From positions 483,266 to 547,265 of the forward strand of contig CAVZNW010000001.1 of NCBI GenBank assembly GCA_963776755.1: a stretch of 64,000 nt of DNA. Reading direction: 5' to 3'. Source of the DNA: an uncultured Acidobacteriota bacterium. GTDB taxonomy: Bacteria > Acidobacteriota > Thermoanaerobaculia > UBA5066 > Gp7-AA6. Below the pieces are notes generated by a model. The model did not search any database. It had not been told where the DNA came from and saw only the letters and a program-made list of their open reading frames with translations. Numbering within the stretch: position 1 is the stretch's first letter; the number at the start of each line of letters is the position of its first letter. This document shows, piece after piece, positions 35,184 to 64,000 of the stretch. Made by a program: the position numbers and the translations under genes.

Positions 35184-35225
35184 CTGAAGAGGCCGTTAAG
35201 TTTCACTCTCTGAGTCGCTTGCACG

Positions 35226-47070: not shown

Positions 47071-48238
47071 GCCGGCTTCGACGGGTTAGGCGCCCGGTGG
47101 CCGCGGCCGCCGTCACGATCACGGTGCCCCGCATGACGTCGCTATGCGGGCCGCAGAAGTAGGGAAACGTCCCGACCTGCGAGAACGTGAACCGAAAGGT
47201 TCCGTCGGAGAGCTCCGGCGAGCCGAAGATCCCGTCCGGAGTGCACACCTGGTCGCAGGAGCCCGAGGTCACCGTGTGGCCGCCGCCGGCCCACACCCAT
47301 TCGATGGTCGTGCCCTGCTCGACGGTCGACACGTTGCCGGAGCTGATCTCGTCGGTAAAGTTCAGTCCGCGCTGGCCGACGAAGACGGTGCGCATCGGCC
47401 CGGGCGGCGTGGCGGTGCGGGTCGGCGTGGGAGCCTGTTGCGTCGGCGTCATGGTCGGACCGCTCGGCGTGATCGGCTGCTGCGGAAGGTCCTCCGCGCC
47501 CACGACGAAGATCGGATCCGTCGTGTTGTTGTCGATGACGGCGGCGTAGGAAAACACCTCGTGCGACGCCGAGACGACGACGAAAGCGTTCTCCGTGGCG
47601 TGGCCCGCCTGGCCCGCGGCGTTGAAGATCCCGGAGACCTGGGCCCCCGAGTGCGCGGCGATCGAGCGCGTGACGGGGTTGCCGACCTGGGCGCCGCCGT
47701 CGAAGATCGTGAAGGTCACGCTGACGGACGAATCCTCCCGGTTGAAGACGCCGACGTTGGTCCGAAAGCCCGCGTTCGGGCCGCCGTTGCGGATCGAGGT
47801 CAGCACCGTCGTCGGGTGGGCCTCGGAAGCTTTCAGGGCCGGGATGAACATCCCGACCGTCGGCTCGGGCTCGGTCGAATAGAGCCGGCTCCTCACGACG
47901 AGCTGGTCGCTGTCGCCCGTGAACTCGAACTCGATCCCGCCGGCGGTGTTCGGCGCGTTGAAGAGCGACACCACGATGTTGTTGAAGGCCCGCGACTCCC
48001 TCGGCGTCAGCGTGAACTGCACCGACTGCGTCGTGGGATTGCACGGGCTGGGGATGAAGCACCGGTAACGCGCCTGGACCGTCAGATCGTTCGTGTAGGA
48101 CGTGTTGAACGCCCGCACGTCCGAAAAGAACGGCGCGCCCCCGACGATCGACGCCGCCGCCGGCAGCGTCACGGTTTCGGCACGGAGGGGCGCCGCCCAG
48201 GCGAGCGCGGCGGACAGGCCGATGCATCTGCGGATCAC
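47042..48238 (-). CDS. Secreted protein with a Pro/Thr linker and a C-terminal cupredoxin domain
   Basis: Signal peptide; FRTNVGVFN; HTVT and YFCGPHSDVMRG type-1 copper ligands. Confidence 0.8.
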   Translation of the reverse strand: MIRRCIGLSAALAWAAPLRAETVTLPAAASIVGGAPFFSDVRAFNTSYTNDLTVQARYRCFIPSPCNPTTQSVQFTLTPRESRAFNNIVVSLFNAPNTAGGIEFEFTGDSDQLVVRSRLYSTEPEPTVGMFIPALKASEAHPTTVLTSIRNGGPNAGFRTNVGVFNREDSSVSVTFTIFDGGAQVGNPVTRSIAAHSGAQVSGIFNAAGQAGHATENAFVVVSASHEVFSYAAVIDNNTTDPIFVVGAEDLPQQPITPSGPTMTPTQQAPTPTRTATPPGPMRTVFVGQRGLNFTDEISSGNVSTVEQGTTIEWVWAGGGHTVTSGSCDQVCTPDGIFGSPELSDGTFRFTFSQVGTFPYFCGPHSDVMRGTVIVTAAAATGRLTRRSRPTGSRSVRP

Positions 48239-48329
48239 GATGCCGCGGATTCTCGAGGCCGGCGACCGAGCTGGAGTGAAGACGGCGAAAAAAAGGCGCC
48301 AACCCGCGGGATCGCCTCCGCCGGTAGGG

Positions 48330-48373
48330 CCTCGCCGCAACTTCACACCCTCTTCGCGCCCCGCGGAGAGCCT
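48330..48373 (+). promoter_or_regulatory. PHO-box-like repeats upstream of glgP
   Basis: CCTCGC/CTTCAC/CTTCGC at 48330/48341/48352 (11-bp period). Confidence 0.5.
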
Positions 48374-48395
48374 AGGACGATCTGAGGAGGGACCG

Positions 48396-50902
48396 ATGCC
48401 CACGATGCCTGAGGCCGGGACCGCGAATCCGGCTCGTCTCGAGCCGGCCCTGGAGAAACTGAGCCTCGAGGAGGCCGGAGGCGAGTGGTCGAACCGATAT
48501 CTCCTGGGCAATTTTCTCGTCGATCCGGCGCTGGCCTCGGACCGCAAACGGTTCGAAGGCCTGGCGCGGTACGTGCGTGACCTCCTCGCGGATCGCTGGG
48601 TCAAGACGCGGCAGGCTCGCGAACGGGCGAATCCGAAGCGCGTCTACTACCTGTCGATGGAGTTCCTGATCGGCCGCACGCTCCGCAACAACATCATGAA
48701 CCTCGCCGCCGAACCGATGGTCCGCAGGATCATGGCGCGCGAGGGCTGGTACCTGGACGAGCTGATCGAGGAGGAGCCGGACGCCGGGCTCGGCAACGGC
48801 GGGCTCGGACGGCTGGCGGCCTGCTTCATCGACTCGCTCGCGACGCTGCAGTACCCGGCGATCGGCTACGGCCTGCGCTACGAGTACGGGATCTTCCGCC
48901 AGTCGATCCGCGACGGCTATCAGGTGGAGCATCCGGACAACTGGCTGCGCCAGGCCGATCCCTGGGAGATCCTGCGCGCCGGGAAGCGTCTATGCGGTCC
49001 CGCTGAACGCCATCCGTCGAGCTGCGTGGGTTCAACGGTCCGCATCCTTCCCAACCGGCCGTCGACCCTGCTCGGCATCGCCTACGACCGGCCGGTGGTC
49101 GGCTACGGGGCCCGCTTCGTCAACACGCTGCGGCTCTGGGCGGCGGCGGCACCGGAGTCGTTCGACTTCGCCGAGTTCTCGCACGGCGACTTCGTCGGCG
49201 CGGTCATCCAGAACGTCGCGGCGGAGTCGCTGACCCGCGTGCTCTACCCGGACGACTCCACCGAGGCGGGCCGGACGCTGCGGTTCCTGCAGCAGTACTT
49301 CATGGTGAGCTGCTCGCTGCAGGACATCGTGATGCGCTTCCGGCAAGCCGGCGAGCCCGGCTGGTCGCGATCTGCCGGACCACGTCGCGATCCAGATGAA
49401 CGACACGCATCCGGCGCTCTCGGTGGCCGAGCTGATGCGGATCCTGCTCGACCAGGCGCACCTCGGCTGGGAAGAGGCCTGGGACCTGACGCGTGCGCAC
49501 GCTGGCCTACACCAATCACACGCTGCTGCCCGAGGCCCTGGAGAAGTGGCCGGTCGAGCTGTTCGAGGATCTCCTGCCCCGGCACCTGGAGATCGTCTAC
49601 GAGATCAATCGCCGCTTCCTCGACGACGTGCGGCGCCGCTACCCGGCGACCGAGCCGGATGCGCCGCATGAGCCTGATCGAGGAAGGAGCCGGACGCGAA
49701 GAGTGCGCATGGCTCATCTCGCGGTCGTCGGCACGCACAGCACCAACGGCGTGGCCGCAATCCATTCGGACCTGCTCCGCGACGCACGTGCTGCAGCGAC
49801 TTCGCCGAGATGTATCCCGGAGCGCTTCAACAACAAGACCAACGGCGTGACGCCCGCGCCGCTGGCTGCAGCAGGCCAATCCGGCCCTGTCGGCCCTGAT
49901 CACGGACAGCATCGGCGACGGCTGGGTCACCGACCTCGAGCAGGCTGCGCGAGCTGCTGCCGCTGGCGCGAGGACGCGAGCGTTCCGCGAGCAGTTCCGC
50001 GAGGCCAAGCGCGAGGCGAAGCTGCGCTTCGCCGACTGGCTCCAGTGCGAACATCGGGCCAGGTCGTCGATCCCGACTCGATCTTCGACAGCCAGGTCAA
50101 GCGCATCCACGAATACAAGCGCCAGCTGCTGAACGTCCTGCACGTCGTGATGCTGTACAACCGGCTCGCGGCGAAGACCCGGACGCTCGAGCTCGCGCCG
50201 CGCACCTTCTTCTTCGCCGGCAAGGCGGCGCCGGCCTACCGCCTGGCCAAGCTCATCATCAAGCTGATCAACAGCGTCGCGGCCGTGGTCGATGCGGACC
50301 CGGCGACCCGCGGGCGGCTGCAGGTGCTGTTCCTGCCCGAATACAACGTCAGCCTGGCCGAGCGGCTGATTCCGGCCAGCGACGTCTCGGAGCAGATCTC
50401 GACCGCCGGCTTCGAGGCCAGCGGCACCGGCAACATGAAGTTCATGATGAACGGCGCGCTGACCATCGGCACGCGCGACGGCGCGACCATCGAGATGGCC
50501 GAGGAGGCCGGCGAGGAGAACTTCTTCCTGTTCGGGCTGACTGCGGAGCAGGTGGCCGACAGCGGCGGCTGGTACGATCCGCGCTGGCACTACGAGAACG
50601 AGCCCGAGACGCGCGCGGCGCTCGACCTGATCTTCTCCGATCACTTCAGTCGCCGACGAACCGGGGGTGTTCGAGCCCATCCGCGAACACGCTGCTGGAC
50701 GAACGGCGACACCTACATGCACCTGGCCGATCTGACGGCGTACGCCCCCGCCCAGCGCGCGTCGGCCGGACGTTCCGACCCGGACGCCTGGACGCGAAAG
50801 GCGATCATCAACGTCGCTTGCTCGGGCCGTTTCTCCAGCGATCGGACCATCCGCAATACGCCGACCGAGATCTGGAACACGCGGCCATGTCCGGTGCCAT
50901 AG
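48396..50902 (+). CDS. glgP: Glycogen/starch phosphorylase (many indels)
   Basis: [33 protein letters not shown] and [10 protein letters not shown]. Confidence 0.95.
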
Positions 50903-52032
50903 CGCCGGGAGTGGCGCAGGGGCGGGCAGCCGGCCCCGACGGGCTGGAGCTGCCGACGCGGTTCGGCAAGCGGGAGCCCGGGGCCGCGCCGGGAGTCGGC
51001 CTGGACGAGCTCGCGCAGATGCACGGCGGGGCCGCCGTGCGGGTCACCTGCATCGACTACGGCCCCGGCGGGCACGAGCTGAGCTCGATCGACGACCTCG
51101 AGGACTTCCTGCGGCGGCACCGTCCGGGATGGGCGACCGTCCGCTGGATCAACGTCGACGGCCTCTCGGATCCGGCGGCCGTACGGGCTCTGGCCGCAAA
51201 GTACGAGCTCCATCCGCTGGCGGTCGAAGACCTTCTCGACACGAACCAGCGGCCCAAGATCGACGCGTTCGAGCAGGACGGCGACCGCCGCGCCCGCATC
51301 TTCGTGATCGTGCGGATGGTCCAGCGGATCCGGGGCGCCCTGTCGAGCGAGCAGATCTCCATCTTCGCCGGCCACAGCACGATCCTCACCTTTCAGCAGA
51401 CGCGGGGCGACGTCTGGGACCCGATCCGGCAGCGCATCGCCAAGCCCGGCTCGCGCATGCGGGAGCTCGACGCGAGCTATCTGCTCTACGCACTGCTCGA
51501 CGCCATCGTGGACCACTGCTTTCCCGTGCTCGAGTACTACGGCGACCGCCTCGAGGAGCTCGAGGACCTGGTGCTCGAACGTGCCGACCGCGAGACGATT
51601 CAACAGATCCACGCCCTGAAGCGCGAGCTGCTGCTCCTGCGCCGGGCCGTCTGGCCGATGCGCGAGGTGATCCATGGGTTGCTGCGCGAGCCCCACGAGT
51701 GTGTCAGCGAGGCGGCGCGTGTCTACCTGCGCGACGTCTACGACCACTCGATCCAGATCATGGACATCATCGAGACCTATCGCGAGGTGGCCTCGAGCCT
51801 GACCGAGACCTACATGACGTCGATGTCGAACCGGATGTCGGAAGTCATGAAGGTGCTGACGATCATCGGAACGATCTTCATCCCGCTGACGTTTCTCGCC
51901 GGAGTCTACGGAATGAACTTCGCGCAGTTTCCCGAGCTCAAGTGGCGCTACGGCTATCCGGCGTTCTGGGTGGTCTGCATCGTTCTCGGCGCCGCCATGC
52001 TCCGGGGGTTTCGCCGGCGCGGCTGGCTGTAG
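50887..52032 (+). CDS. corA: Magnesium/cobalt transporter CorA
   Basis: HPLAVED, QRPK and IPLTFLAGVYGMNF. Confidence 0.95.
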   Translation: MSGAIAPGVAQGRAAGPDGLELPTRFGKREPGAAPGVGLDELAQMHGGAAVRVTCIDYGPGGHELSSIDDLEDFLRRHRPGWATVRWINVDGLSDPAAVRALAAKYELHPLAVEDLLDTNQRPKIDAFEQDGDRRARIFVIVRMVQRIRGALSSEQISIFAGHSTILTFQQTRGDVWDPIRQRIAKPGSRMRELDASYLLYALLDAIVDHCFPVLEYYGDRLEELEDLVLERADRETIQQIHALKRELLLLRRAVWPMREVIHGLLREPHECVSEAARVYLRDVYDHSIQIMDIIETYREVASSLTETYMTSMSNRMSEVMKVLTIIGTIFIPLTFLAGVYGMNFAQFPELKWRYGYPAFWVVCIVLGAAMLRGFRRRGWL

Positions 52033-52042
52033 GGAAAGCCGA

Positions 52043-52071
52043 AGGGGGCATGCCGGCGCGGCATGCCCCCT
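52043..52071. terminator. Hairpin between convergent genes
   Basis: AGGGGGCATGCC/GGCATGCCCCCT stem. Confidence 0.5.
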
Positions 52072-52099
52072 CAATCCCCGATTCGCCGGGCAGGAAAAC

Positions 52100-53485
52100 C
52101 TAGAGCGGATGGTCCAGGCGAATCACGATGAGCTGGCTCTCGCGGCCGCTGTCCTCGAGGAGGCAGCTCCCGCCGTCGACCTGGAAGGCTCCGACGCCGA
52201 AGTCGTTGTCGTTGGCGATCGCGATCGTCTTGCGATCGAGAATCGCCAGACCTTCAATCTTCTGCGGGATCGCCAGGCCGTGCAGCGGAACGGTGGAATC
52301 GAGCGTCAGGATGAGCTCCTTGGGCAGGGGATGGATCCCGTTGGATTCGAGAGCGCCATCGGCATTGAGCGACTCGAGGCTGGGCGACGTGGCGACGTCG
52401 TCCCAGGCGCTTCCGTAGATGTTGGTCGCGTCCCGCAGGTCGACCTCGAAGACCTTGGCCTTGAGGTCGGTCCGCTCGAGGACCAGCATTCGGTGGGAAT
52501 CGACCATCGCCAGCGCGGAGACTTTCATGTCCTGGGGCCGCGCATTGTTGACTCCCGGGATGTCGAACTCGTCAGTGGCCGCGGCGTCGGCCGTGACGAA
52601 CTGGAAGCGGTAGACGTACTCTCCGACGACCTGCTCGGTGCGCGTGTCGAAAACCAGGATTCGCGTGTTCCGGGAGCTGTCGCCGGTGGAGTTGTTCGGG
52701 TTGCGAAGCGGGCTCTGGAGGGCGACGTAGAGCTTCCTTTCGTTGGGTGAGAGGGCGAGCCCCTCGAAGCCCCGGTTCAGCTTTCGCTTGGCGCCGAAAA
52801 CAGCCGGGATTCCAGCGGCGTCGGTCGCGTCGTAGCCCGTGATCGGGGCCAGATAGGGCAGCAGGTCCTGCGGCAGGAATCGCCGCTCGACCCGGCCGTG
52901 CCGATTGATCTTCAGAATCGAGGGGCTGTACTCCTCGACGACCCAGAAGTCCCCGTCGCGGGTGCGCACCAGGCCTTCGGTGTCGAGCCCGTTGCGGTTG
53001 GGGGAGAGCGGAGTCGTCCCGTCGCAAGCGAAGAAGGCCTCGTTCGGGGCCGGCGGCGCCGCGGTGTTGTCGAGGTTGGGCAGGCCGGTCACGCCGGTGA
53101 CCGCGTCGTTCACTCCCGTGATCGGGATCGCCTTCCGGATTTCGAGCTTCCCGTCTTTCGCCTTGACCTTCAGGATGAACGGTGTGAACTCCGGAACGGG
53201 AAAGGTCCGAGGATCCTCTCCGTTCGGGCCGCGATCCGTGATCATCCAGAACGCGCCGTCGTCCCCGTCGCCGGACCAGAGGTCGCTGCCGATGCCGCCC
53301 AGATTGATGCCGTGGTCGTCGACTCCCACCAGCCCCAGCTCGTCGGCCAGAAACTCGGAGAGGCCGATTTCGGGCAGAGTGTAGGTCGCTTCCTTGCGGG
53401 GCTTTTCCGCGAGGGCCGCCGTGGAGGTCAGAAGAGTCAGTGTGCCGCCGAGAACGAGACTCCCGATTCGACTCGCAAGATGCAT
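52100..53485 (-). CDS. Secreted esterase-like/phytase-like family protein
   Basis: Signal peptide; TDRGPN, DTEGL, EEYSP, NRGFEGL, LQSP and NDNDFG. Confidence 0.85.
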   Translation of the reverse strand: MHLASRIGSLVLGGTLTLLTSTAALAEKPRKEATYTLPEIGLSEFLADELGLVGVDDHGINLGGIGSDLWSGDGDDGAFWMITDRGPNGEDPRTFPVPEFTPFILKVKAKDGKLEIRKAIPITGVNDAVTGVTGLPNLDNTAAPPAPNEAFFACDGTTPLSPNRNGLDTEGLVRTRDGDFWVVEEYSPSILKINRHGRVERRFLPQDLLPYLAPITGYDATDAAGIPAVFGAKRKLNRGFEGLALSPNERKLYVALQSPLRNPNNSTGDSSRNTRILVFDTRTEQVVGEYVYRFQFVTADAAATDEFDIPGVNNARPQDMKVSALAMVDSHRMLVLERTDLKAKVFEVDLRDATNIYGSAWDDVATSPSLESLNADGALESNGIHPLPKELILTLDSTVPLHGLAIPQKIEGLAILDRKTIAIANDNDFGVGAFQVDGGSCLLEDSGRESQLIVIRLDHPL

Positions 53486-53620
53486 GGAACCTCCCTCATT
53501 CAGAGTTTGTGGTTTCGGACCGCGTGGAGGTTGACAGCGCGGCTGACCGGGCCGAATGAACGCGAGGTCAAATTTCGACGAAGGCCTCGGGACGGCGCCC
53601 TGCGCCGGGCTGTGACCCTC

Positions 53621-53830
53621 TCAGATCCAGACGACGCCGACCGTCATCGGCGCCCCGGCCTGCGTGAGGGCGAAAAAGATCGAGGCTTCATGTTGGGTCC
53701 CGCAGGACCGGCAGTGGACGTCGACGGTGGCTCCGGCCTCGGCTTCGGGGGCGACGAGCGACTCGTTTCGCGTCTGGCAATCGGGACAGGTCCAGCTCAT
53801 CTCCGGCCTCTGGTTCATTTCAGTCTCCAT
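53621..53830 (-). CDS. Small zinc-ribbon-like protein
   Basis: WTCPDC...HCRSCG; start uncertain. Confidence 0.55.
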   Translation of the reverse strand: METEMNQRPEMSWTCPDCQTRNESLVAPEAEAGATVDVHCRSCGTQHEASIFFALTQAGAPMTVGVVWI

Positions 53831-53986
53831 GGGCGGACGAGACCAGCCCGCGGCGAAGCCCCGGTGGGCTTCGCGTAAACTTCGAGCGATCCAGCGGGCA
53901 ACCCCATGGGTCCGCGCCGAGCGGTGTGGAGACGTGGTTGGAGCGGGAATCGGCGCCGCCGATGGCACCGAACCGGTCGGCCCGGT

Positions 53987-54019
53987 CTTCACGCCGGCTT
54001 CATGGTCCCTGAGGAGGAT
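53987..54019 (+). promoter_or_regulatory. PHO-box-like repeats upstream of the cNMP-binding protein gene
   Basis: CTTCAC (53987) and CTTCAT (53998), then GAGGAT 10 nt later. Confidence 0.55.
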
Positions 54020-54036
54020 CTCGCCCAGGAGGAGAC

Positions 54037-54411
54037 ATGCCCGTCACACGCCTTTTCGACCACGCGAGCGACGCGCGACCGATCGCCGCGGGGACAACGA
54101 TTTTCAGTGCCGGCGACCGCCGGGATCACATGTACGCCGTTCTCGACGGCCAGGTGGACATCTTCGTCGGCGGCCAGCTCCTGGAGACCGTCGAGAAGGG
54201 GGGCATTTTCGGCGAGATGGCGCTGATCGAGAAGGAAAACCGCGTGGCGACCGCCGTTGCCAGGACCGATGCGCAACTGGTCGCGGTCGATGAGGGCCGT
54301 TTCCTCTTCCTGATCCAGCAGACGCCGAACTTCGCCCTCCACGTCATGCGCGTACTCTCCGACCGGATTCGCCGGATGGATCAGCGACTCGCCCGGACGG
54401 AAAGGGTCTAG
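54037..54411 (+). CDS. Stand-alone cyclic nucleotide-binding domain protein
   Basis: IFSAGD, FGEMALI..RVATAVA; AGGAGG RBS; no HTH domain. Confidence 0.88.
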   Translation: MPVTRLFDHASDARPIAAGTTIFSAGDRRDHMYAVLDGQVDIFVGGQLLETVEKGGIFGEMALIEKENRVATAVARTDAQLVAVDEGRFLFLIQQTPNFALHVMRVLSDRIRRMDQRLARTERV

Positions 54412-54460
54412 CGCGATCTGACAGGGGCGACGCGACGGCGCTGGCGGACGGGACCGCGCC

Positions 54461-55276
54461 CTACCGCCGTGCCGCGGTTTTTCGAGAAATTGGCACGACG
54501 TCCGGCGCCCGGGACGCCTCCACCGCGGCCCGGCGGATCGAGGTGATCGTCGGTTCGAGTCCGGTGAGCAGGCGCTCGAGCTCGGCGGCGAGCATGATGG
54601 CGCCGCGCTCCTCGGCCTCGTTCCGGCTCTCGGACAGCCGGCGGCAGAACATCCGCAGGTCGTTCCAGCGGCCGAGCGCCTCCTGCAGCGCCTTCTCCCG
54701 TTCGATTTGAGTCGTGAACCGTCGCACTCCAAGGGCGGCGAGGTCTTCGGCGAGGTAGCGCGCCCGCTTCACGGCGACGCGGTAGCGGTGCAGCTCGGCA
54801 TCGTCCCGGCCCTCGAGGGACTGGGCCAGAGTCGCCTCCGCCTTGCCGCGCGCGCGTTCGAGACGCTCCACGAGGTCGTCCCTCTGCCGGCGTCCCAGGC
54901 GTTCGAGTTCCCGGAGCAGTGCCCGCACGGACTTCCCGCCAGCCGCGCGGGCGATCCGGCGGCTTCCGCGCTCGGCGATCTTCTCCCACCGGGCGGCCAG
55001 CGCGGTTGTCGCGTCGGGAGAGAGGTACCCGAGCTTCCCGATGCGCGCGAGCAGCTGCCGGTCCACCTGGATCTGCCGGTCGCCCGAGAGCGACTGCACG
55101 ATCGCGCGTGCCCCGCGCGAGACGCCTTTGGCACCGAGCGCGCTCGCCGTCGCGCTGACGCGGCGAAGGGCGACCCGCAGATCGTGCAGACCTTCGGGGT
55201 CGCCGCGGCGCGCCGCCTTGCGAGCGCGCTCCACCGAGCGCGCGCGGAGTTTCCAGAGCTCGCCAGGATTTCGCAT
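54461..55276 (-). CDS. CHAD-domain (polyphosphate-binding) protein
   Basis: LHDLRVALRR, LHRYRVAVKRARY and LQEALGRWND. Confidence 0.88.
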   Translation of the reverse strand: MRNPGELWKLRARSVERARKAARRGDPEGLHDLRVALRRVSATASALGAKGVSRGARAIVQSLSGDRQIQVDRQLLARIGKLGYLSPDATTALAARWEKIAERGSRRIARAAGGKSVRALLRELERLGRRQRDDLVERLERARGKAEATLAQSLEGRDDAELHRYRVAVKRARYLAEDLAALGVRRFTTQIEREKALQEALGRWNDLRMFCRRLSESRNEAEERGAIMLAAELERLLTGLEPTITSIRRAAVEASRAPDVVPISRKTAARR

Positions 55277-55312
55277 GGGGCGGTATTATAGGGACACGAG
55301 AAGGAGAATTGA

Positions 55313-55367
55313 CTTCACGCGTCCTTCACATGGTCTTCACCGTGTTCCTCCGGCGGGAGGCGACAAT
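55313..55367 (+). promoter_or_regulatory. PHO-box-like triple repeat upstream of ppx
   Basis: CTTCAC at 55313, 55324 and 55335 (exact 11-bp period); GACAAT at 55362. Confidence 0.7.
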
Positions 55368-55376
55368 GCGCCCGCC

Positions 55377-56973
55377 ATGCGTACGCTCGGTGCGATCGAC
55401 ATCGGGACCAACAGCATCAAGCTGCTGGTCGCCAACCTCGAGGACGACGGGACGCTGGAAGTCCTCCTCCGCGAGAAGGCCATGGTGCGCCTCGGGAGCG
55501 AGACCCTGCGAACCGGCAAGCTCTCGCCGGAGGCGATCGAGGCGGGCGCCTCGACGGTCGAGCACTTCGTCAAGCTGGCCGGGGGCTCCGGCGCCGAGAT
55601 CGTCCGCGCCGTCGCGACGTGCGCGGTGCGCGAGGCGACCAACTCCGACGAGTTCGTCGAGGCCGTGCGGAAGCGGACCGGCGTCAAGGTCGAGGTGATC
55701 TCGGGCGAGGAAGAGGCCCGGCTGATTAACCTCGCCCTCCGCAGCGAGTTCCCGGCGCGTCAGGACCCCCTGTTCCTGATCGACATCGGCGGGGGCTCGA
55801 CCGAGTTCGTCATCTCCGATGGGGCGCGCGTTCTTCTGACCGAGAGCCTGCCTCTCGGCGTCGTTCGCCTGGCCGATCGGCACGCCCGCAACGATCCGCC
55901 GTCGGACAAGGACCTGCGGGCCATGAAGAAGGACATCCGCGTCGCGGCCAAGCGCGCGGCCGAGGCCGTCCGCAAGAAGGGTTTCAAGACCTGCGTCGGG
56001 TCCTCGGGGACGATCCAGTCGCTGTCGCTCGTCCACGAGGCCGCGGTCCTGGGCCGCGAGCCGAGCCCGACCGGGCACCGGACGCTGACCCGGGAGGGCC
56101 TCAAGAAGGTCAACCGGCTGCCTGCGCCGCACGACGGAGAAGGAGAAGCTGCGGGTCCCGGGCCTCGACCCGCGCCGCCGCGACATCGCGGTGCCCGGCG
56201 GACTGATGCTGGCCTGGATCCTCAAGCGCACCGGGGCGGAGGCCATCGTCGTCGGCGAGCGGGGCCTGCGCGAGGGCCTGCTCCTCGACTACGTCGCCCG
56301 CCACGGGGAGACCCGCATCGCCACGAACCGCGACATGCGCGCGCGCAGCGTCGACCGCCTCCTCCGGCGCGGAAACGCCGAGGTCGTCCATGCGGCCCAC
56401 GTCGCCCGCCTGGCGCTCGAGCTCTTCGACCAGACCCATTCCATCCACCAGCTCACCGCGACCGAGCGGGAGTGGCTCCAGTACGGGGCCCTCCTCCACG
56501 ACATCGGGTGCTACATCGGGTACGCCAAGCACCAGCGCCACTCCTATTACCTGATCACCCACGGCGATCTGACGGGCTTTTCGGCCGACGAGATCGAAGT
56601 CCTGGCATGCCTGGCGCGCTACCACAAGGGGGGAGGTCCGAAGGCCTCGCACGAGAACTGGCGGCGGCTCAACCCCTACCTGCAGGCGGTGGTCGAGAAG
56701 CTCGCCGCGATTCTGCGCATCGCCGACGGCCTCGACCGGAGCCACCGGCAGATCGTTACGGGCATATCCTGCCGGGTGCGGGCCCGCAAGATCGAGATCG
56801 AAGCCGCCGCGCGGGCGGACTGCGAGCCCGAGATCGACGCCGCGCGAAAGAAAGCCGACCTGTTCGAGCGTGTCTACGACCGGGGCCTGGCGCTGCGCGC
56901 CGTTCCGGCCGGGCGCGACGAGGTCCTGCAGAAGGACCTGGAGATCCTGTCTGCCGAGGCGCTTTGGAACTGA
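55377..56973 (+). CDS. ppx: Exopolyphosphatase Ppx/GppA with HD domain (indel near 56120)
   Basis: AIDIGTNS, ISGEEEARL, DIGGGSTE, GLREGL and LLHDIG. Confidence 0.93.
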
Positions 56974-56995
56974 GACCGGAAACGGGGAGGAAAGC

Positions 56996-57661
56996 GTGAA
57001 GGAGCATTTTTCGGAGCAGCTTGAGAATCTTCGGCGCCAGCTCATTCTCATGGGCGGCGAAGTCGAGCGTCAGATCCACAATTCCATCGAGGCCCTGACC
57101 GAGATGGACGCCGAGAAGGCGCGAGCGGTGATCGCCGCCGACGAGGAGGTCGACCGCCTGGAGTTGCAGGCCGAGGACGCGGCGATCGCTCTTCTCGCGC
57201 TCCAGCAGCCGGTTGCGGTCGACCTGCGCTTCCTGGTGGCCGCGCTCAAGATCAACAACGACCTCGAGCGCATCGGCGACCACGCCGTCAACATCGCGGA
57301 GGGCGCCGAGCGGCTGGCCGGCCAGAAGCCGTTCAAGCCGTTCATCGACATACCGTACATGGCGGAAGTGGCCATCTCGATGCTGAAGCAGTCGCTGGAC
57401 GCGTTCGTCAACCGCGACGCCGACCTGGCGCGGCGCGTGATCAAGAAGGACGACATCCTCGACGAGAAGAACGTCTCGATCATCCGCGAGCTGCTGACCT
57501 ACATCGCCGAGTACCCCGCGCTGACGACGTACTGCATCGAGCTGATTTCGATCGCCAAGAACCTGGAGCGTGTCGGGGACCTCGCCACCAACATCTGCGA
57601 GGACACCATCTTCATCGCCGAGGCGAAGTGGGTGAAGCATCACGCGACGGAGCTGCCGTGA
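56996..57661 (+). CDS. phoU: Phosphate signalling protein PhoU
   Basis: QQPVAVDLR, DLERIGDHAVNIA and LERVGDLATNICE. Confidence 0.96.
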   Translation: MKEHFSEQLENLRRQLILMGGEVERQIHNSIEALTEMDAEKARAVIAADEEVDRLELQAEDAAIALLALQQPVAVDLRFLVAALKINNDLERIGDHAVNIAEGAERLAGQKPFKPFIDIPYMAEVAISMLKQSLDAFVNRDADLARRVIKKDDILDEKNVSIIRELLTYIAEYPALTTYCIELISIAKNLERVGDLATNICEDTIFIAEAKWVKHHATELP

Positions 57662-57730
57662 AGCCGGGGCCCGAACGGCTCCAGCCGGGGGCGCGGCCCG
57701 CCGCCTGACGTCGGCTGCCTTCCTCGGACC

Positions 57731-59028
57731 ATGATCCTCCCGCCGTTCCTCTGGGGTGTCGCTACGTCCGCGTACCAGGTCGAGGGAGCGGCGACAACGA
57801 CTGGACCGAGTGGGAGCGCCTCGACCGGCTCAAGTCACCGGGCATCCGGTGCGGCCGGGCCTCCGGCCACGCCGAGCGGTGGCGCTCGGACTTCGCGCCT
57901 CCTGCCCACCGTCTCCGCCAACGCGTACCGGTACTCCCTCGAGCGCAGCCGCATCGAGCCGGAGCCGGGCTGGTTCTCCGAAGAGGCGCTCGCCCTCGAG
58001 CGTGAACGGGTGGCGGCCCTGTCTCGACTCGGGATCGAGCCCTGCGTGACTCTCCACCACTACACGCACCCACGCTGGTTCTGGGCCGAGGGAGGCTGGG
58101 AGGACTCGAGGAGCATCGCGGGCTTCCGGCGCTACACCGAGGTCGTGGCCGAGGCGCTGGGTCCCCGGGTGCGCGTCTGGGTGACCCTGAACGAGCCGAT
58201 CGTGTTCATCCTCGGCGGATACCTCGGCGGCCTGATCCCGCCCGGCCGGAAGGACTTTCGCCTCGCCGCGCGCGCGCTCGAGCACATGCTGCGCGCCCAC
58301 GGCGAGGCCGCGGCCGCCATCCGCGAGCGGATCCCGGACAGCCGCGTCGGGATTGCCCACAACATGCTGGAGTTCGCTCCGGACCGGCGCGAGAGCGGGC
58401 TCGACCGGCGCCTGGCGCGGGAGGGCGAGCGACTCTACAACCTCGCCCTGCTCGACGCGATCACGACCGGGGACCTCGACTGGTCGTTTCCCGGGCCAGG
58501 GGCGCACCCGGGTCCGGCTCGCGGAGCTGCCCGCGTCCAACGATTACATCGGCGTCAACTACTACAGCCGCGTTCACATCCGTTTCCGCGGCGTGCCGGG
58601 CGCCGTGGGCGAGTTCTTCTATCGAGACCCCGCCGCGCGGGGCCTGACCGACACGGGCTGGGAAGTCCACCCTCACGGCTTCGACTCGGTGCTCCGCCAG
58701 GCGGGGCAGACGCGCCTGCCCGTCCTCGTCACCGAGAACGGCATCGCGACCACCGACGACCGGCGGCGCACGGACTTCCTGCGCGAGCACGCCCTGGTGC
58801 TCGCCCACCGCCAGGCCGCGGGGACCCCGATTGCGGGCTACTTCTACTGGTCCCTGATCGACAACTTCGAGTGGCTCGAGGGGTTCCGGCCGCGGTTCGG
58901 CCTCTTCGAGGTCGACTACGCGACCTTCGCCCGGCGCCGGCGGCCCTCGGCGGACGTGTTTGCGGCGCTGGGCCGGCGGTTCACCGGCGGCAGCGGATGC
59001 CGGAATCGCCGCCTCTTCTCGAACGTGA
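57731..59028 (+). CDS. Glycoside hydrolase family 1 (indels; end inferred)
   Basis: WGVATSAYQVEG, TLNEP, VTENG and DNFEW. Confidence 0.9.
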
Positions 59029-59803
59029 CGAACTCGGCCGCGCCGGCCGCCCGGGCGAGCGACAGAGTCTTCTCGTATCCCCAGCCCACCTCGGCGGGAG
59101 CGTGCGCGTCCGAGGAGAACGTCACGGGAACTCCGGCCGCGACGAGCGCCGAGAGCAAGCGGGGCTCGGGGTAGGCCTCCCCGACGGGCTTGCGCAGCCC
59201 GGCCGAGGAGATCTCGACCGTGACCCCGGCCTCCCTGGCCGCGGCGATGGCGTCTCGCTCGGCCTTCTCGCGCGGCGCTGCCGGCCGATGCCCGTGCTTC
59301 TTCGGAAGGTCGAAGTGCGTGAGGACGTCGAAGAGGCCGGTCCGCGCCGCCTTCGCGAGCAACTCGTAGTAGCGGTCGTACAGCGACTCGGCGCCCTCCC
59401 GTTCGAAGCGCCGGGGCGAGGTCGCCGGATCGTCGATCCAGCCCCCGTCGACCCAGTGGACGGACCCGAGAACCAGGTCCCAGTCCGCGCGGGCGAGCCA
59501 GCGGGCGAGGTCGTCCTCGCGGCCCTCGGCATAATCGGCCTCGAGGCCGAGGCGCACGGCGATCGCCCCCCGGAACTCTTCCCGCAGGGCCTCGACCTCG
59601 GCCACGTATTCGTCGAACTGGTCCTCCCGCATGGCCAGTTTCGGGTCCCGGCCGCTTTCCGGCAGGAAATAGAGCGGAATGTGGTCGGTGAAGGCGATTT
59701 CCGAGAGGCCGCCCTCGATCGCCCGCAGGACGTAGTCCCGGGAGGCGCCGCCGGCGTGGCCGCACCGGAACGTGTGGACGTGGTAGTCGGGAAGCCCCTG
59801 CAC
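58981..59803 (-). CDS. PHP-family histidinol-phosphatase (HisJ/HisK-like); end inferred, ORF track reads to 58916
   Basis: DYHVHT..CGHA, FTDH, LGLEAD, GSVH and SDAH. Confidence 0.88.
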
Positions 59804-59827
59804 GCCCGGATTATCGCCCCCGGGGTC

Positions 59828-59860
59828 CTTCACACCGTCTTCATGTGCCGCTCCTACAGT
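59828..59860 (+). promoter_or_regulatory. PHO-box-like repeats plus a -10-like hexamer
   Basis: CTTCAC (59828), CTTCAT (59839) and TACAGT 10 nt later; GTCCTTCACAnnGTCTTCA is shared with the ppx site. Confidence 0.65.
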
Positions 59861-59868
59861 TCGGCGCC

Positions 59869-60216
59869 ATGACGCACAACGCCGAGGACATGTATCTCGT
59901 GCCGGAACGCTCGGTTCCGGTGTCTGGATTCTCACGCGATCTGCGCCTCGCGGATGACGTCCAGCGATTTCGATTCCTCTTCGCGCTTCGCGGCGAGGCC
60001 GCTATGCCGGTGCACATCGTCTTCTCGCCAACCCTCCGTGTGGCGGAGGTCAAGACGGGTGACATGAAGGTCCTGCGCCTGGCCGATGTCGCTTCGCCGG
60101 AGGACGCGCGCGAGCGCTGGGTCGCCTGGTGGAAGGCCGGTGGCGGCGGCAAGCCGAGATTCGTCGCTCCGCGCCGCGCGGGCCGGTACCCCGCTCCCCA
60201 GCTCGCACGGGCGTAG
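59869..60216 (+). CDS. Hypothetical protein
   Basis: ORF filling the intergenic space directly behind the PHO-like promoter. Confidence 0.5.
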   Translation: MTHNAEDMYLVPERSVPVSGFSRDLRLADDVQRFRFLFALRGEAAMPVHIVFSPTLRVAEVKTGDMKVLRLADVASPEDARERWVAWWKAGGGGKPRFVAPRRAGRYPAPQLARA

Positions 60217-60320
60217 GCGCGGGGGAACGGTCTTCGCGCCGTTCTTACCTCCGGTAAGGCTGACTTTTTCCCGGTTCTCGCGCGGTTCTCGCGTCGGGCG
60301 TCCAGACTGCGGACGTTCGC

Positions 60321-61033
60321 ATGCTGCTCTGTGACTTTCACATCCACACGACCTACTCGGACGGCATCCTGCCGCTGACGAAGGTGGTCGACCTCTTCGG
60401 CCGTTCGGGACACGACGTCATCGCCATCACCGATCACATCGTCAACCATGACAGCGGCCTCGGGAAGATCGCGCACCGCATCCGCCACAGCCTGGACACG
60501 GAGAGCTGGAAGCGCTACGCCGAGGAGATCGCCCGCGAGGCCGAGCGAGCCTGGCACACGTATGGCATGTTGGTGATTCCGGGTGCCGAGATGACGCGCA
60601 ACACCATCAACCGGGACACGTCGGTCCACGCCCTCGCCCTGGGCCTCGACGAGTTCCTGCCGGCCGACGGCGATCCCCTGGAGATGCTCGCGCGAGATCC
60701 GCGCGCGGGGTGCGGTCTCGGTCGCCTGCCACCCCCACGAGATGAGCGAGTGGTTCGCCAACACGTGGTACCTCTGGAATCGCCGCAAGCAAGTCGGCCA
60801 CCTGGTGGATCTCTGGGAAGTCGGCTGCCGGTGGGAGCTCTTTCCGGTGATCTCGCGCGAGAGCCTGCCGCATCTGGCCAACAGCGACTTCCACCGGCCG
60901 GAGCACCTCTACGCCTGGAAGACCCTCCTCAACGCCGAGAAGGACCGCGGCTCGGTTCTGGCGGCGCTTCGACGCGGGAACGGGCATCGGCGTGCTGCGG
61001 CTGACTCCGGCGGAAGCGGCGGCCTCGGCGTGA
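60321..61033 (+). CDS. PHP-domain phosphoesterase (indels)
   Basis: CDFHIHTTYSDG, IAITDH, PGAE, CHPH and ANSDFH. Confidence 0.85.
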
Positions 61034-62178
61034 GCCTGGCGATCGGGCTCGCCGGCCTGGGGGCGCTCATGCTCTGCGCCGGCGCCTACGCGGTCTCCGC
61101 CGCCGCCTACCTGCGCCTTCGCCGGCGCGGGCGCGGGGAGCCTCTCGAAGGGTTCGTGCCTCCCGTCTCGATCGTCAAGCCCCTCGCGGGCCTGGACGAG
61201 GCCCTCGAGGAGAATCTCGAAAGCCTGTACCGCATCGACTACTCGGCGCAGCGGTTCGAGGTCGTCTTCTCCTTCGCGGCGGCGGACGACCCGGCCGGCC
61301 GGATCGCGCGGAGCGTTGCCGACCGGCATCCCGAGATCCGTTCGATCTTCGTCTTCGACCCGCGGGAGCCGGGCGGCAACGCCAAGGTCAACCGGCTCTC
61401 GGCGGCGCTGCGCTTTGCGCGGCACCGGCTCGTGCTCTTCCAGGACGGCAACGTTCGCGTCCGGCCGGATTTCCTGAAGCGCGCGGTGTCCTGGTTCGCG
61501 GATCCACGCGTGGGTCTGGTCTCGCACCTGTTCCGCGCGTCCGGGGCCGCGAGTTTCGGCTCGCGCATCGAATCGCTGTACCTGAACGGATGCCTCCTGC
61601 CGGGGACAGCGCTCATCGCGGCCGTACTCGGGCGGCCGTGCGTCGTCGGAAAGTCCATCCTGGTCTCGCGCCGGGCGCTCGATTCCATCGAGGGCATCGG
61701 AGCCCTGCGGGACTATCTCGCCGAGGATTTCGTCCTCGGCCGCGAGGTCCAAAGGGCGGGCTACCGGGTCGTGCTCTCGACCGACGTACTCGAGACGACC
61801 GAGGTCCGCAAGTCCGTGCGCGCGGTATGGGCGAGGCACCGGCGCTGGTCGATGATGCGCCGGCGCCTCGCGACCCGTCTCTACGCCGGCGAGGTGCTGG
61901 CGAGCCCGCTGCCGTGGTTCGCGCTGGCCCTGGTGGCGCCGTCCACTCCCGTGCGCCTGGCGGCGCTGGGGCTGCTGGCGCTTCGTTGGGGGGTGGAGAT
62001 GGCCGTCTGGCGCTGGTCGGGCGGTGCGATGGCCTGGCGCGACGCGGCCCTCTTGCCGCTTCGGGACCTGGGCGCCGCCGCCGTCTTCTGGGCGGGGGTC
62101 TTCGGCCGTTCCGTCGCGTGGCGCGGGCGGCCGCTCGTCATCGGCCGCGACACGCGGATCCTGCGCCGCGCGGCGTAG
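61030..62178 (+). CDS. GT21 / ceramide glucosyltransferase-like (HpnI-like) glycosyltransferase
   Basis: N-terminal TM segment; SIVKPLAG, NAKVNRL, LAEDF and RHRRW. Confidence 0.85.
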   Translation: MSLAIGLAGLGALMLCAGAYAVSAAAYLRLRRRGRGEPLEGFVPPVSIVKPLAGLDEALEENLESLYRIDYSAQRFEVVFSFAAADDPAGRIARSVADRHPEIRSIFVFDPREPGGNAKVNRLSAALRFARHRLVLFQDGNVRVRPDFLKRAVSWFADPRVGLVSHLFRASGAASFGSRIESLYLNGCLLPGTALIAAVLGRPCVVGKSILVSRRALDSIEGIGALRDYLAEDFVLGREVQRAGYRVVLSTDVLETTEVRKSVRAVWARHRRWSMMRRRLATRLYAGEVLASPLPWFALALVAPSTPVRLAALGLLALRWGVEMAVWRWSGGAMAWRDAALLPLRDLGAAAVFWAGVFGRSVAWRGRPLVIGRDTRILRRAA

Positions 62179-62181
62179 GAC

Positions 62182-64000
62182 CTAGAGCGTCGGGACGGCC
62201 TTGAGCCCGCGGCGAGTGAGGCGGTCGAGAAGCATCCCCTGCGTGTCCACGGGGGCCTCGCCGGCCGCAGGGTGGCGTCGGACGTAGGTTCCGTCGCTCT
62301 GGAGGTCCCTGGCGCGGCAGTTGTCCGAGCGGATCGGCGCCAGGATCTCCTGCCGGATTTTCTCCTTCGCCTTCTCGTCGAGGACCGGCGTCATGAGCTC
62401 GACGCGGCGGTAGAAGTTGCGCGGCATCCAGTCGGCGCTCGAGATGAAGATCTCTTCCTCGGTGCCGACGCCGAACGAGAAGGCCCGGGAATGCTCGAGA
62501 AAGCGGCCGACGACGCTCGTGACCCGGATGCCTTCGGAGACGCCCGGCACGCCGGGTCGAAGGCAGCAGATGCCCCGCACCGAGAGATCGATGGGAACTC
62601 CGGCCTGGGAGGCCCGGTAGAGCGCCCGGATCACCTTCGGCGTCCACGAGGGAGTTGAGCTTGGCCACGATCGAGGAGGGCTTGCCCGACCTGGCCTTTT
62701 CGGCCTCGCGCTCGATCAGCGCCAGGACGCGATCGTGCAGAGCAAACGGCGCAACGGAGAGGCGCTTGTACCGGGTCTTCTTCGAGAAGCCCGGTCAGGA
62801 AGTTGAAGAGCTCCGAGGCGTCGTGCCCGAAGTCGGCTCGGGAGGTGAAGAGCCCCACGTCGGTGTAGATGCGCGCCGTCAGGCGGTTGTAGTTGCCGGT
62901 GCCCACGTGGACGTAGCGGCGCATCGTGGTCCCCTCGCGGCGGACGACCAGGGCGATCTTCGCGTGCGTCTTCAGGCCCTCGACTCCGTAAGCCACGTGC
63001 ACCCCGGCGCGCTCGAGCGACCGCGCCCACTGGATGTTGTTCTCCTCGTCGAACCGCGCCTTGAGCTCGACCAGGACCGCGACCTGCTTGCCGTTCTCGG
63101 CCGCCCGCGCCAGCGCGGCCACGACGGGGGAGTCCGCCCCGACCCGGTAGAGCGTCATCTTGATGGCGAGCACGTCCCGGTCGTCGGCCGCGGCGTCGAG
63201 GAACCGCAGGACCGGGTCGAAGGCGTCGTAGGGATGGTGGAGGAGGATGTCGCCCTTCCGGATCGCGTCGAAGACGTTGGCGGGCGGATCGAATAGGGTC
63301 CGCGACGCCGCCAGGAACGGCGCGTCCTTGAGGTTCGGCAGGTCGAGCTTCATCACCGACATGAGGTCCGCGGCGCCGAGGGGCCCGGCGACCTCGTAGA
63401 CGTCGCCGGGATCGAGCTCGAGCTGGGTGCGCAGCAGCTCGCGGACGTTCTCGGAGCAGCGATCGTCGACCTCGAGGCGGATGGCCGCGCCGAAGCGGCG
63501 CCGGCGGAGGTTGTCCGTCATGCTGCGGAGCAGGTCGCCCGCCTCGTCCTCCCGGATCTCGATGTCGGCGTCGCGCGTCACGCGAAAGGCGGAGGCGCCG
63601 AGGATTTCCATGCCCGGGAAGAGACGGTCGAGGTTGGCCTCGATGAGCTTCTCGAGGAGCACGAACTCGAGCGTCTTGCCGGGGGCGCCGGGCACCGGAA
63701 CGAACCGGGAGAGCGACGCCGGCACCTTGACGCGCGCGAACGCGGGCGTCTTCTCCTTCTTGTCCTTGAGCTCGACGGCGAGCGAAAGCGACAGGTTGGA
63801 GACGAACGGAAACGGGTGCGCGGGATCGAAGGCGAGCGGCGTCAGGACCGGGAAGACCACGCTCTCGAAGTAGGCCGACAGCTCCTTGCGGCGCTCGGGC
63901 TCGATCTCCTCCCAGGACAGGATCCGCACTCCCGCCTCGGCGAGCTTCGGCTGGAGGTCTTCCTTGAGCAGCCGCATCGCGGCGCCGGCGTCCCGTTCGA
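62182..64000 (-). CDS. ppk1: Polyphosphate kinase 1, 3' part (indels; start lies outside the window)
   Basis: HPFPFVSNLS, LLHHPY, ELKARFDEENN, KTHAK and SSADWMPRN. Confidence 0.96.

Follow-up and report, generated by a model that had tools for sequence, protein, structure and literature searches.

Introduction

A PHO box is described as two or more direct-repeat units of 11 nucleotides (nt), with the core CTGTCAT in Escherichia coli and GTTCACC in Streptomyces coelicolor (PMC4415409). PhoB sites are reported to overlap the -35 region, and PhoB to contact sigma (PMC3348028). In S. coelicolor, the PHO system has been linked to glycogen catabolism (PMC4415409; PMC2275107), and GT21 enzymes (Pgt) are described as producing glycolipids under phosphate deprivation (PMC8231724). 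For the Thermoanaerobaculaceae, PMC8100337 reports polyphosphate and glycogen, detected by fluorescence in situ hybridization (FISH)-Raman, in cells of wastewater lineages. Here, we analyzed a stretch of 64,000 nt (the window) from G000, a metagenome-assembled genome (MAG) of the class Thermoanaerobaculia (Acidobacteriota), in which CTTCAC-type hexamers repeated every 11 nt precede genes of polyphosphate, glycogen and Mg2+ handling, and evaluated these repeats as candidate PHO boxes.

A full-text literature search, supplements excluded, returned no Pho box paper on Acidobacteria apart from unrelated leaderless-gene work. The box would thus be a testable candidate for the first operator sequence of a phosphate-starvation regulator in Acidobacteriota, a dominant and largely uncultured soil phylum, and would let Pho regulons be read directly from MAGs of the class Thermoanaerobaculia.

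Promoter Geometry of the CTTCAC Repeats

The window corresponds to C1:483266-547265 of G000, a genome of 4.4 Mb and 70% G+C in four contigs. An earlier note on this DNA had described CTTCAC-type hexamers at an exact 11-nt spacing, and all the strong sites were recovered at their coordinates (Table 1). Its second observation, an nAnnnT hexamer at a set distance behind the last unit, was borne out as well: GAGCCT before glgP, GAGGAT before the gene of a cyclic-nucleotide-binding (cNMP) protein, TACAGT before the open reading frame (ORF) at 59869 and CAGACT before the PHP-GT21 gene pair each start exactly 10 nt past the last unit, and GACAAT before ppx stands at 10 + 11 nt, that is, 21 nt after the last strong unit. 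The 10-nt distance was also found at pstS, which lies beyond the window. All arrays run head-to-tail and point toward the downstream gene, and no recognisable -35 element of their own was found at the box promoters. In E. coli, the PHO box lies 10 bp before the -10 element.

The distance from the -10-like hexamer to the ATG agreed with the type of translation start. At 17–30 nt a GGAGG-type Shine-Dalgarno sequence is present (glgP, the cNMP gene, pstS and a secreted-protein ORF preceding pstS), while at 8–12 nt it is missing (ppx, ORF 59869 and PHP2, the first gene of the PHP-GT21 pair). This pattern predicts leaderless or near-leaderless mRNAs for the latter three genes, and it supports the -10 assignments, because the presence or absence of a Shine-Dalgarno sequence fits the predicted start sites.

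The arrays thus comprise at least two tandem 11-nt units with a conserved core, they are placed at the predicted -35 position, and the genes behind them include the hallmark genes pstS and phoA. The CTTCAC repeats are quite probably the PHO boxes of this Thermoanaerobaculia lineage, bound by PhoB and replacing the -35 element; a lineage-specific PHO box, as the earlier note had proposed, finds support in the pstS arrays, the footprints among relatives and the promoter geometry, all of which are sequence evidence. The unit would be an 11-nt direct repeat made of the core CTTCAC, usually a purine next, and about 4 free bases. The OmpR/PhoB-family regulator whose gene stands beside phoR immediately behind pstB would, when phosphorylated, bind these units head-to-tail; with 10 nt between the end of the last unit and a weak -10, the array would take the place of the -35, from where PhoB would draw RNA polymerase to the promoter at low phosphate, in the geometry of a PhoB-type class II activator. 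We infer that PhoB would be the binder, activation its effect, and limitation of inorganic phosphate (Pi) the signal. Predicted targets in the window are ppx-phoU-GH1 for the breakdown of polyphosphate, glgP-corA for the phosphorolysis of glycogen and an additional Mg2+ channel, the stand-alone cNMP-binding protein, ORF 59869 and PHP-GT21, and those past the window would be a PP2C-phoA operon, a lipoprotein, a secreted protein and pstSCAB-phoBR.

The same geometry bears on the sign of regulation. PhoB might bind the boxes and yet mainly repress or roadblock some promoters, such as those of the divergent CHAD and PHP genes, so that the downstream genes are not induced by Pi starvation. Two boxes do lie in divergent intergenic regions beside strong and conserved -10 elements belonging to the opposite genes, and repression of glycogen catabolism by S. 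coelicolor PhoP is reported in PMC4415409. However, at every promoter the units face the -10 of the downstream gene at the fixed 10-nt distance, which is the geometry of an activator, and these promoters have no recognisable -35 of their own, so we regard predominant repression as very improbable.

Occurrence of the Box in the Window and the Genome

When up to 2 mismatches were allowed, CTTCAC-N5-CTTCAC had 11 matches in the window where 2.63 were expected (standard deviation 1.66, largest 7), and 0 of 100 dinucleotide-preserving shuffles of the window reached 11 matches. Two of the 2-mismatch matches, at 35184 and 35454, sit between convergent genes. With up to 1 mismatch, the whole genome contained 14 matches, 6 of them within C1:531606-551834 (binomial P = 4e-10 for 6/14 falling in 32 kb of 4.4 Mb). 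The spacing histogram showed the same concentration: within C1:530-562 kb there were 6 pairs at spacing 11 vs. 0–3 at any other spacing, while outside this interval there were 8 pairs at spacing 11 vs. 7–19 at other spacings that are not multiples of 3. Because spacing 11 is at background outside C1:530-562 kb, the strict CTTCAC motif is real but local. Rather than being no more frequent here than in other DNA, the strict pairs are concentrated in one island and at background level over the remaining genome, and since the strict box marks no genes elsewhere, the box-defined regulon is essentially this one island. The earlier note had drawn it as a 16-kb unit, an extent that did not hold; the box-defined island measures about 24 kb (C1:531.6-555.4 kb) and extends beyond the window end.

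An 11-mer position weight matrix (PWM) built from nine in-window units returned training sites as its top five dimers (24–28 bits), and genome-wide it yielded no further strong site, the next best scoring 18.9 bits. A relaxed genome scan for two units plus nAnnnT at +10, based on crude gene calls for an assembly with frameshifts, gave 22 matches, the top five being those at ORF 59869, the cNMP gene, a site at C2:2404551, glgP and pstS. The candidates of the PWM and the relaxed scan that were examined outside the island were treated as chance. They adjoin unrelated genes, namely those of a 3-hydroxyanthranilate dioxygenase, a pyridine-nucleotide disulphide oxidoreductase, a DUF2277 protein and a kinase fragment, and ORFs without a family match.

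Conservation of the Boxes Among Relatives

A Ppx search yielded 45 loci, of which 39 came from MAGs titled Acidobacteriota or Thermoanaerobaculia, with a best segment 74–98% identical; six Acidimicrobiia Ppx loci (34–37% identity) were excluded from the comparison. The gene order CHAD / ppx-phoU-GH1 / PHP / ORF / PHP-GT21 / ppk1 was retained in about 30 of the 39 loci. After one locus without upstream DNA (L029) had been dropped, the ppx promoter was compared in 38 loci: three perfect CTTCAC units were present in 32/38, all 38 had no more than 3 mismatches in the 18 core positions, and the 36-nt distance to the ATG was the same in 37/38. The 5-nt spacers vary among the loci, and the -10-like family consensus gAnAaT is conserved.

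ORF 59869 gave an equally clear result. A CTTCAC pair with at most 2 mismatches of 12 stands at spacing 11 on the coding strand in 30/30 loci, compared with 0–5/30 at other spacings from 7 to 16 on the same strand and 0–10/30 on the other strand, and nAnnnT follows exactly 10 nt after the pair in 24 of the 30 relatives. For glgP, a stricter family search found few loci, so the footprint drew mainly on the seven relatives with glgP upstream of ppx plus G000; five of these eight genomes, G000 included, have CTTCAC-N5-sTTCGy followed 10 nt on by GAGCCT or CAGTCT, and of the other loci one has a weaker pair and two a single unit. Among cNMP orthologues of at least 67% identity the tandem box is present in 3/3, and one at 53% has CTTCGC-N5-TTTTAC; none of the loci at 32–50% identity has a tandem box. 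The box-less L092 and L097 (49%) may be further cNMP orthologues, while the other loci in the 32–50% range look like paralogues.

Two weaker sites had also been claimed. The degenerate array before PHP-GT21 is in phase, and its relatives (32 loci, read by eye) have CTTCGC / CTTTAC ... CCTCGC or CTTCGC in phase, with CAGACT, GACAAT or GAGAAT 10 nt after the last unit, so that the last unit and the -10-like hexamer are conserved, the array itself being degenerate. The array claimed before the phytase-like gene (units at 53583, 53572 and 53561, minus strand) is likewise there, but the hexamer at +10 is CAGCCG, which is not -10-like, and no orthologue of the gene was found at E<=1e-30 in 60 family genomes.

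Phylogenetic footprinting thus found constant hexamers amid divergent spacers and flanks across the relatives, and these footprints show selection acting on the hexamers, not on the spacers. The repeats might still not be regulator sites at all, having arisen by chance, as remnants of duplicated promoters or repeats, or as part of an alternative-sigma promoter, and the background level of spacing-11 CTTCAC pairs in the remaining genome would agree with this. None of 100 shuffles, however, matched the observed count, the ORF 59869 pair is tied to one spacing and one strand, and across loci with Ppx 74–98% identical the spacers and flanks have diverged around unchanged hexamers, which rules out a recent duplication. 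Nor, to our knowledge, are tandem 11-nt direct repeats the signature of any sigma factor. We consider a non-regulatory origin of the repeats scarcely credible.

The pst-pho Region Beyond the Window

The stretch past the window end (locus L011, C1:547000-566000) encodes a CarH-like regulator and an SMR pump, then on the minus strand an alkaline phosphatase (phoA) behind a PP2C/SpoIIE phosphatase, followed by a lipoprotein gene, a secreted-protein gene, pstS, pstC, pstA, pstB, a phoB-like gene and a gene of a PhoR/PnpS-like kinase. The pstSCAB-phoB-phoR genes begin about 8 kb, and those of PhoB/PhoR lie about 12 kb, beyond the window end. In detail, pstB and the best PhoB match adjoin at C1:558407-559901, with phoR next. 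The PhoB-like protein, encoded at C1:559167-559922 (L011:12168-12923), has 251 aa and scored 205 bits to TIGR02154, below the cut-off of 296; with the PhoR/PnpS-like kinase encoded after pstB/PhoB, a cognate PhoB-PhoR two-component system is thus present. As phoB-phoR follow pstB with no gap large enough for a promoter, they are presumably autoregulated from the pstS promoter.

The motif is not absent at pstS/phoBR, since pstS has three in-phase nTTnAy units: GTTAAC / ATTCAT / GTTAAC, spaced by 11 nt, with CATGTT following at 10 nt. The secreted-protein ORF before pstS has CTTCGA / ATTTAC / CTTCGT / GTTGAC, then TACAAC 10 nt later. At the lipoprotein promoter CTTCAC, ATTTAC, CTTCAC and CTTCAG share one common 11-nt phase, and the PP2C-phoA operon has CCTCAG / CTTCAC, with 2–3 units in 5/5 PP2C orthologues read by eye. 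At spacing 11, with both strands counted, three or more nTTnAy units in a row exist at exactly two places in the genome, ppx and pstS; among the remaining spacings between 7 and 16, one run was counted at 9, three at 12, one at 15 and none elsewhere. A run spaced by 11 precedes pstS in 19/29 family relatives, as against 0 at every other spacing between 7 and 16 and 0 on the opposite strand, and the secreted ORF has the four-unit array, 10 nt and TAYAA in 20/29. One of the 29 loci (L067) is from an unpublished genome (G012); without it, the counts are 18/28 and 19/28, respectively. Because both kinds of site have the nTTnAy core and agree in phase, strand and distance to the -10, we infer that one and the same binder would serve the CTTCAC and the pstS classes.

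Two regulators could nevertheless divide these sites, another OmpR/PhoB-family regulator for storage-polymer genes binding the CTTCAC boxes at ppx, ORF 59869, the cNMP gene and glgP, and PhoB acting only at the degenerate TTAAC/TTTAC-type pstS arrays. The unit sequences of the two classes differ, the strict CTTCAC-class PWM misses the pstS array at spacing 11, and G000 has three other full-length OmpR-type regulators. Against these points, the conserved ppx cluster of annotated relatives encodes no such regulator, the ppx operon includes phoU, which belongs to the Pho system, and the PP2C and lipoprotein promoters near pstS have perfect CTTCAC units. In addition, most relatives have nTTCAy as the middle unit at pstS, and some have CTTCAC itself there; the two classes also do not differ in phase, in strand or in their 10-nt distance to the -10. 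A division of the sites between two regulators therefore appears unlikely.

Several further observations weigh against the assignment of the repeats to PhoB, and against the wider functions read from it, in addition to the background level of spacing-11 pairs outside the island and the unrelated neighbours of the outlying scan candidates. The units at pstS and at the secreted ORF differ from CTTCAC at 2/6 positions each. A hexamer PWM built from the CTTCAC-type units of relatives peaks at spacing 12 on the pstS array, though at spacing 11 on the secreted-ORF promoter; this strict PWM was replaced by a phase count of nTTnAy units, a pattern drawn up with the pstS site already in view. The three additional OmpR-family regulators of full length, at C1:194540, C4:326045 and C1:665689, are other possible binders, the -10 hexamers are weak (e.g., GAGCCT and GAGGAT), and the relatives are non-independent samples in all the footprint counts. 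As to function, glgP-corA and the phytase-like and cNMP genes do not adjoin ppx in most relatives, no tandem box was found in the ppk1 upstream region in G000 or its relatives, and the "lipid" role claimed for PHP-GT21 is no more than an analogy. The glycosyltransferase has HpnI as its best NCBIfam match, and with 266 bits this match falls short of the 310-bit cut-off.

The secreted protein directly before pstS (L011:7224-8324, 366 aa, ending in ...LFNF) has its own four-unit box, belongs to no known family and occurs in 37 of the 60 other genomes of the family that were searched; an outer-membrane channel for phosphate is one possible role.

Genes of the Island

The features inside the window are listed in Table 1. 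The reading frames of glgP, the GH1 gene and ppk1 are broken in G000, and pstS/C/A/B (L011:8373-12152) are also each split over several frames. The same genes are intact in relatives (in L040, for example, glgP encodes 819 aa and the GH1 gene 431 aa), and the stated completeness of G000 is 55.7%, so the broken frames look like assembly indel errors rather than pseudogenes.

Table 1. Boxes, promoter elements and genes between positions 48330 and 64000 of the window (window coordinates).
Feature	Position	Strand	Remarks
Array CCTCGC 48330 / CTTCAC 48341 / CTTCGC 48352	48330..48357	+	Before glgP; CCTCGC weaker
-10-like GAGCCT	48368..48373	+	10 nt past last unit; GGAGG Shine-Dalgarno downstream
glgP, glycogen/maltodextrin phosphorylase	48396..50902	+	Pfam Phosphorylase on ORFs 48102-49850 and 49493-50902; two frames
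corA, second copy	50911..52032	+	Pfam CorA 1.1e-68; 9 nt after glgP
Phytase-like esterase gene	52100..53485	-	Pfam Phytase-like 2.2e-50
Weak three-unit array CTTCGT / TTTGAC / GTTCAT	53556..53583	-	Before phytase-like gene
Box CTTCAC 53987 / CTTCAT 53998	53987..54003	+	Before cNMP-binding gene
-10-like GAGGAT	54014..54019	+	10 nt past last unit; AGGAGG Shine-Dalgarno downstream
Stand-alone cyclic-nucleotide-binding protein	54037..54411	+	124 aa; Pfam cNMP_binding 2.2e-19; without DNA-binding domain
CHAD-domain gene	54461..55276	-	Pfam CHAD; divergent from ppx
Perfect TATAAT	55285..55290	-	8 nt before CHAD start
Box array, three perfect CTTCAC (55313/55324/55335)	55313..55340	+	Strongest box; before ppx
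-10-like GACAAT	55362..55367	+	9 nt before ppx ATG; without Shine-Dalgarno
ppx, exopolyphosphatase, Ppx/GppA family	55377..56999	+	Pfam Ppx-GppA 1.4e-51
phoU	56996..57661	+	Pfam PhoU 1.5e-49; overlaps ppx stop codon, same operon
GH1 beta-glucosidase-like gene	57731..59000 (end approximate)	+	Pfam Glyco_hydro_1, residues 6-248; 3' part out of frame
PHP-domain phosphatase, HisJ histidinol-phosphatase family	58916..59833	-	Divergent from ORF 59869
Box CTTCAC 59828 / CTTCAT 59839	59828..59844	+	Before ORF 59869
-10-like TACAGT	59855..59860	+	8 nt before ATG; without Shine-Dalgarno (predicted leaderless)
Conserved ORF	59869..60216	+	115 aa here, 146 aa in L040
Degenerate in-phase array CTTCGC, TCTTAC, ..., TCTCGC, TCTCGC	60232..60292	+	Before PHP-GT21
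-10-like CAGACT	60303..60308	+	10 nt past last unit
Second PHP-domain metallohydrolase (PHP2)	60321..61004	+	Pfam PHP; NCBIfam CehA/McbA 49 bits, below cut-off
GT21-type glycosyltransferase	60742..62178	+	Pfam Glyco_transf_21 3.3e-42
ppk1, frameshifted	62182..64000, on to window-equivalent 64304	-	Pfam PP_kinase domains

The corA gene starts 9 nt past glgP, and for this reason the two probably form one operon. The island corA is 82% identical to a gene of G006, a member of another genus, which is itself preceded by CTTCAC-N5-CTTCAT. In contrast, the box was absent at 13/13 other corA loci of housekeeping type (59–68% identity), including the second G000 copy (C4:486041-487132, 66% identity), which matches the box-less type of genomes in the genus. 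That the island gene is closest to a box-preceded gene of another genus suggests that it may be a transferred, Pho-dedicated paralogue. The phytase-like gene lies behind a small zinc-ribbon ORF, and the cNMP gene was found near ppx in no relative. In relatives, a PAS-GGDEF-EAL gene (L040:6804-9011) lies between glgP and CHAD, where G000 has the corA, phytase-like and cNMP-binding genes; because of this difference in gene content, the left part of the island is variable, even between genomes with Ppx 97–98% identical.

CHAD was conserved in 38/39 loci. Its perfect TATAAT implies a putatively leaderless CHAD promoter, and a tattata stretch upstream of the boxes was read by eye in all listed relatives except L047. 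A conserved GTTCCGCCG element lies between the third CTTCAC and the ppx -10 (55341-55361), out of phase with the boxes. An ATAAT element, like the TATAAT of CHAD, stands before the divergent PHP gene at 59833, whose HisJ-type assignment is based on its orthologue L040:13561-14451 (305 bits to NF005596, cut-off 202, plus Pfam PHP).

ORF 59869 had no Pfam or NCBIfam match, and an Atlas search returned unnamed clusters only; many relatives have a longer N-terminus with a Cys-rich (CxC...CxC) sequence. The true GT21 start is probably near 61000.

Of the polyphosphate co-control claimed in the earlier note, the part concerning ppx finds support, as ppx has the box; ppk1, named alongside, is without a tandem box. 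The ppk1 gene is followed past the window end by the divergent gene of the CarH-like MerR/B12-binding regulator, and between the two lies an AT-rich inverted repeat (TTGTCTATATAT...GGACAA; L011:754-777, window-equivalent 64488-64511), with similar tgtc...gaca elements at the same place in most relatives. This repeat is probably a CarH operator, in which case ppk1 would be under light/B12 rather than Pho control.

Taken together, the gene content suggests a tentative picture, which we regard as possible rather than probable. In soil Thermoanaerobaculia, nearly the whole Pho regulon might lie in a ~24-kb island with ppx-phoU as the strongest operator, and accessory genes, namely those of glycogen phosphorylase, an extra CorA Mg2+ channel, the phytase-like esterase and the cNMP-binding protein, might join it by bringing CTTCAC pairs along or by gaining them; PhoB would then drive the use of polyphosphate and glycogen reserves in concert, coupled to Mg2+ handling, a reserve strategy like that of polyphosphate-accumulating organisms. 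The PHO-box reading itself predicts that the breakdown of polyphosphate, the phosphorolysis of glycogen and a second Mg2+ channel would be switched on jointly at phosphate exhaustion, which would bear on phosphorus storage and release by soil and wastewater Acidobacteriota. The boxes also flag three poorly typed candidates for a role in Pi starvation: ORF 59869, the stand-alone cNMP-binding protein and PHP-GT21.

Comparison With Known Systems

Several of the genes found here recall the polyphosphate-accumulating organisms, as ppk1, ppx, phoU, pst, glgP and an Mg2+ channel are clustered, a likeness in gene content. The picture differs in that ppk1 here is without a box, and the report on Thermoanaerobaculaceae (PMC8100337) concerns wastewater lineages. 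The PHP-GT21 pair, predicted to be Pho-controlled, resembles the PlcP-Agt/Pgt operons described for Pi-starved Alphaproteobacteria and SAR11 in having a phosphoesterase gene followed by a glycosyltransferase gene. Unlike in those operons, the esterase here is a PHP-domain protein and not a PlcP metallophosphoesterase, and the GT21 protein is closest, below the cut-off, to HpnI, a hopanoid glycosyltransferase. A PlcP-Agt-type operon combines a PlcP-type phosphoesterase with a diacylglycerol glycosyltransferase (GT4 Agt or GT21 Pgt); PHP-GT21 is not of this type, and only its gene order is analogous.

With the pho box as described for E. coli, the boxes share tandem 11-nt units over the -35 and the targets pstS and phoA, while the core differs, the best-conserved operator here is at ppx-phoU and not at pstS, and phoU lies outside the pst operon. 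The closest likeness is to the S. coelicolor PhoP boxes as reported: both have 11-nt units in a high-GC genome, share the core TTCAC (CTTCAC vs. GTTCAC), form simple and complex operators through a varying number of units, and are linked with glycogen catabolism. The systems belong to different phyla, and the first base is C here and G there. Moreover, glgP here is apparently set for activation, whereas repression is what the S. coelicolor source reports, and the regulon here looks physically concentrated in one island. Less ordinary features of the island are that the strongest and best-conserved operator stands at ppx-phoU rather than at pstS, that the regulon is physically consolidated, and that accessory operons (glgP-corA, cNMP and perhaps the phytase-like gene) vary among close relatives yet have the box. 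As read here, this is a PHO-box regulon of known type, with a lineage-specific core that is closest to the actinobacterial GTTCAC.

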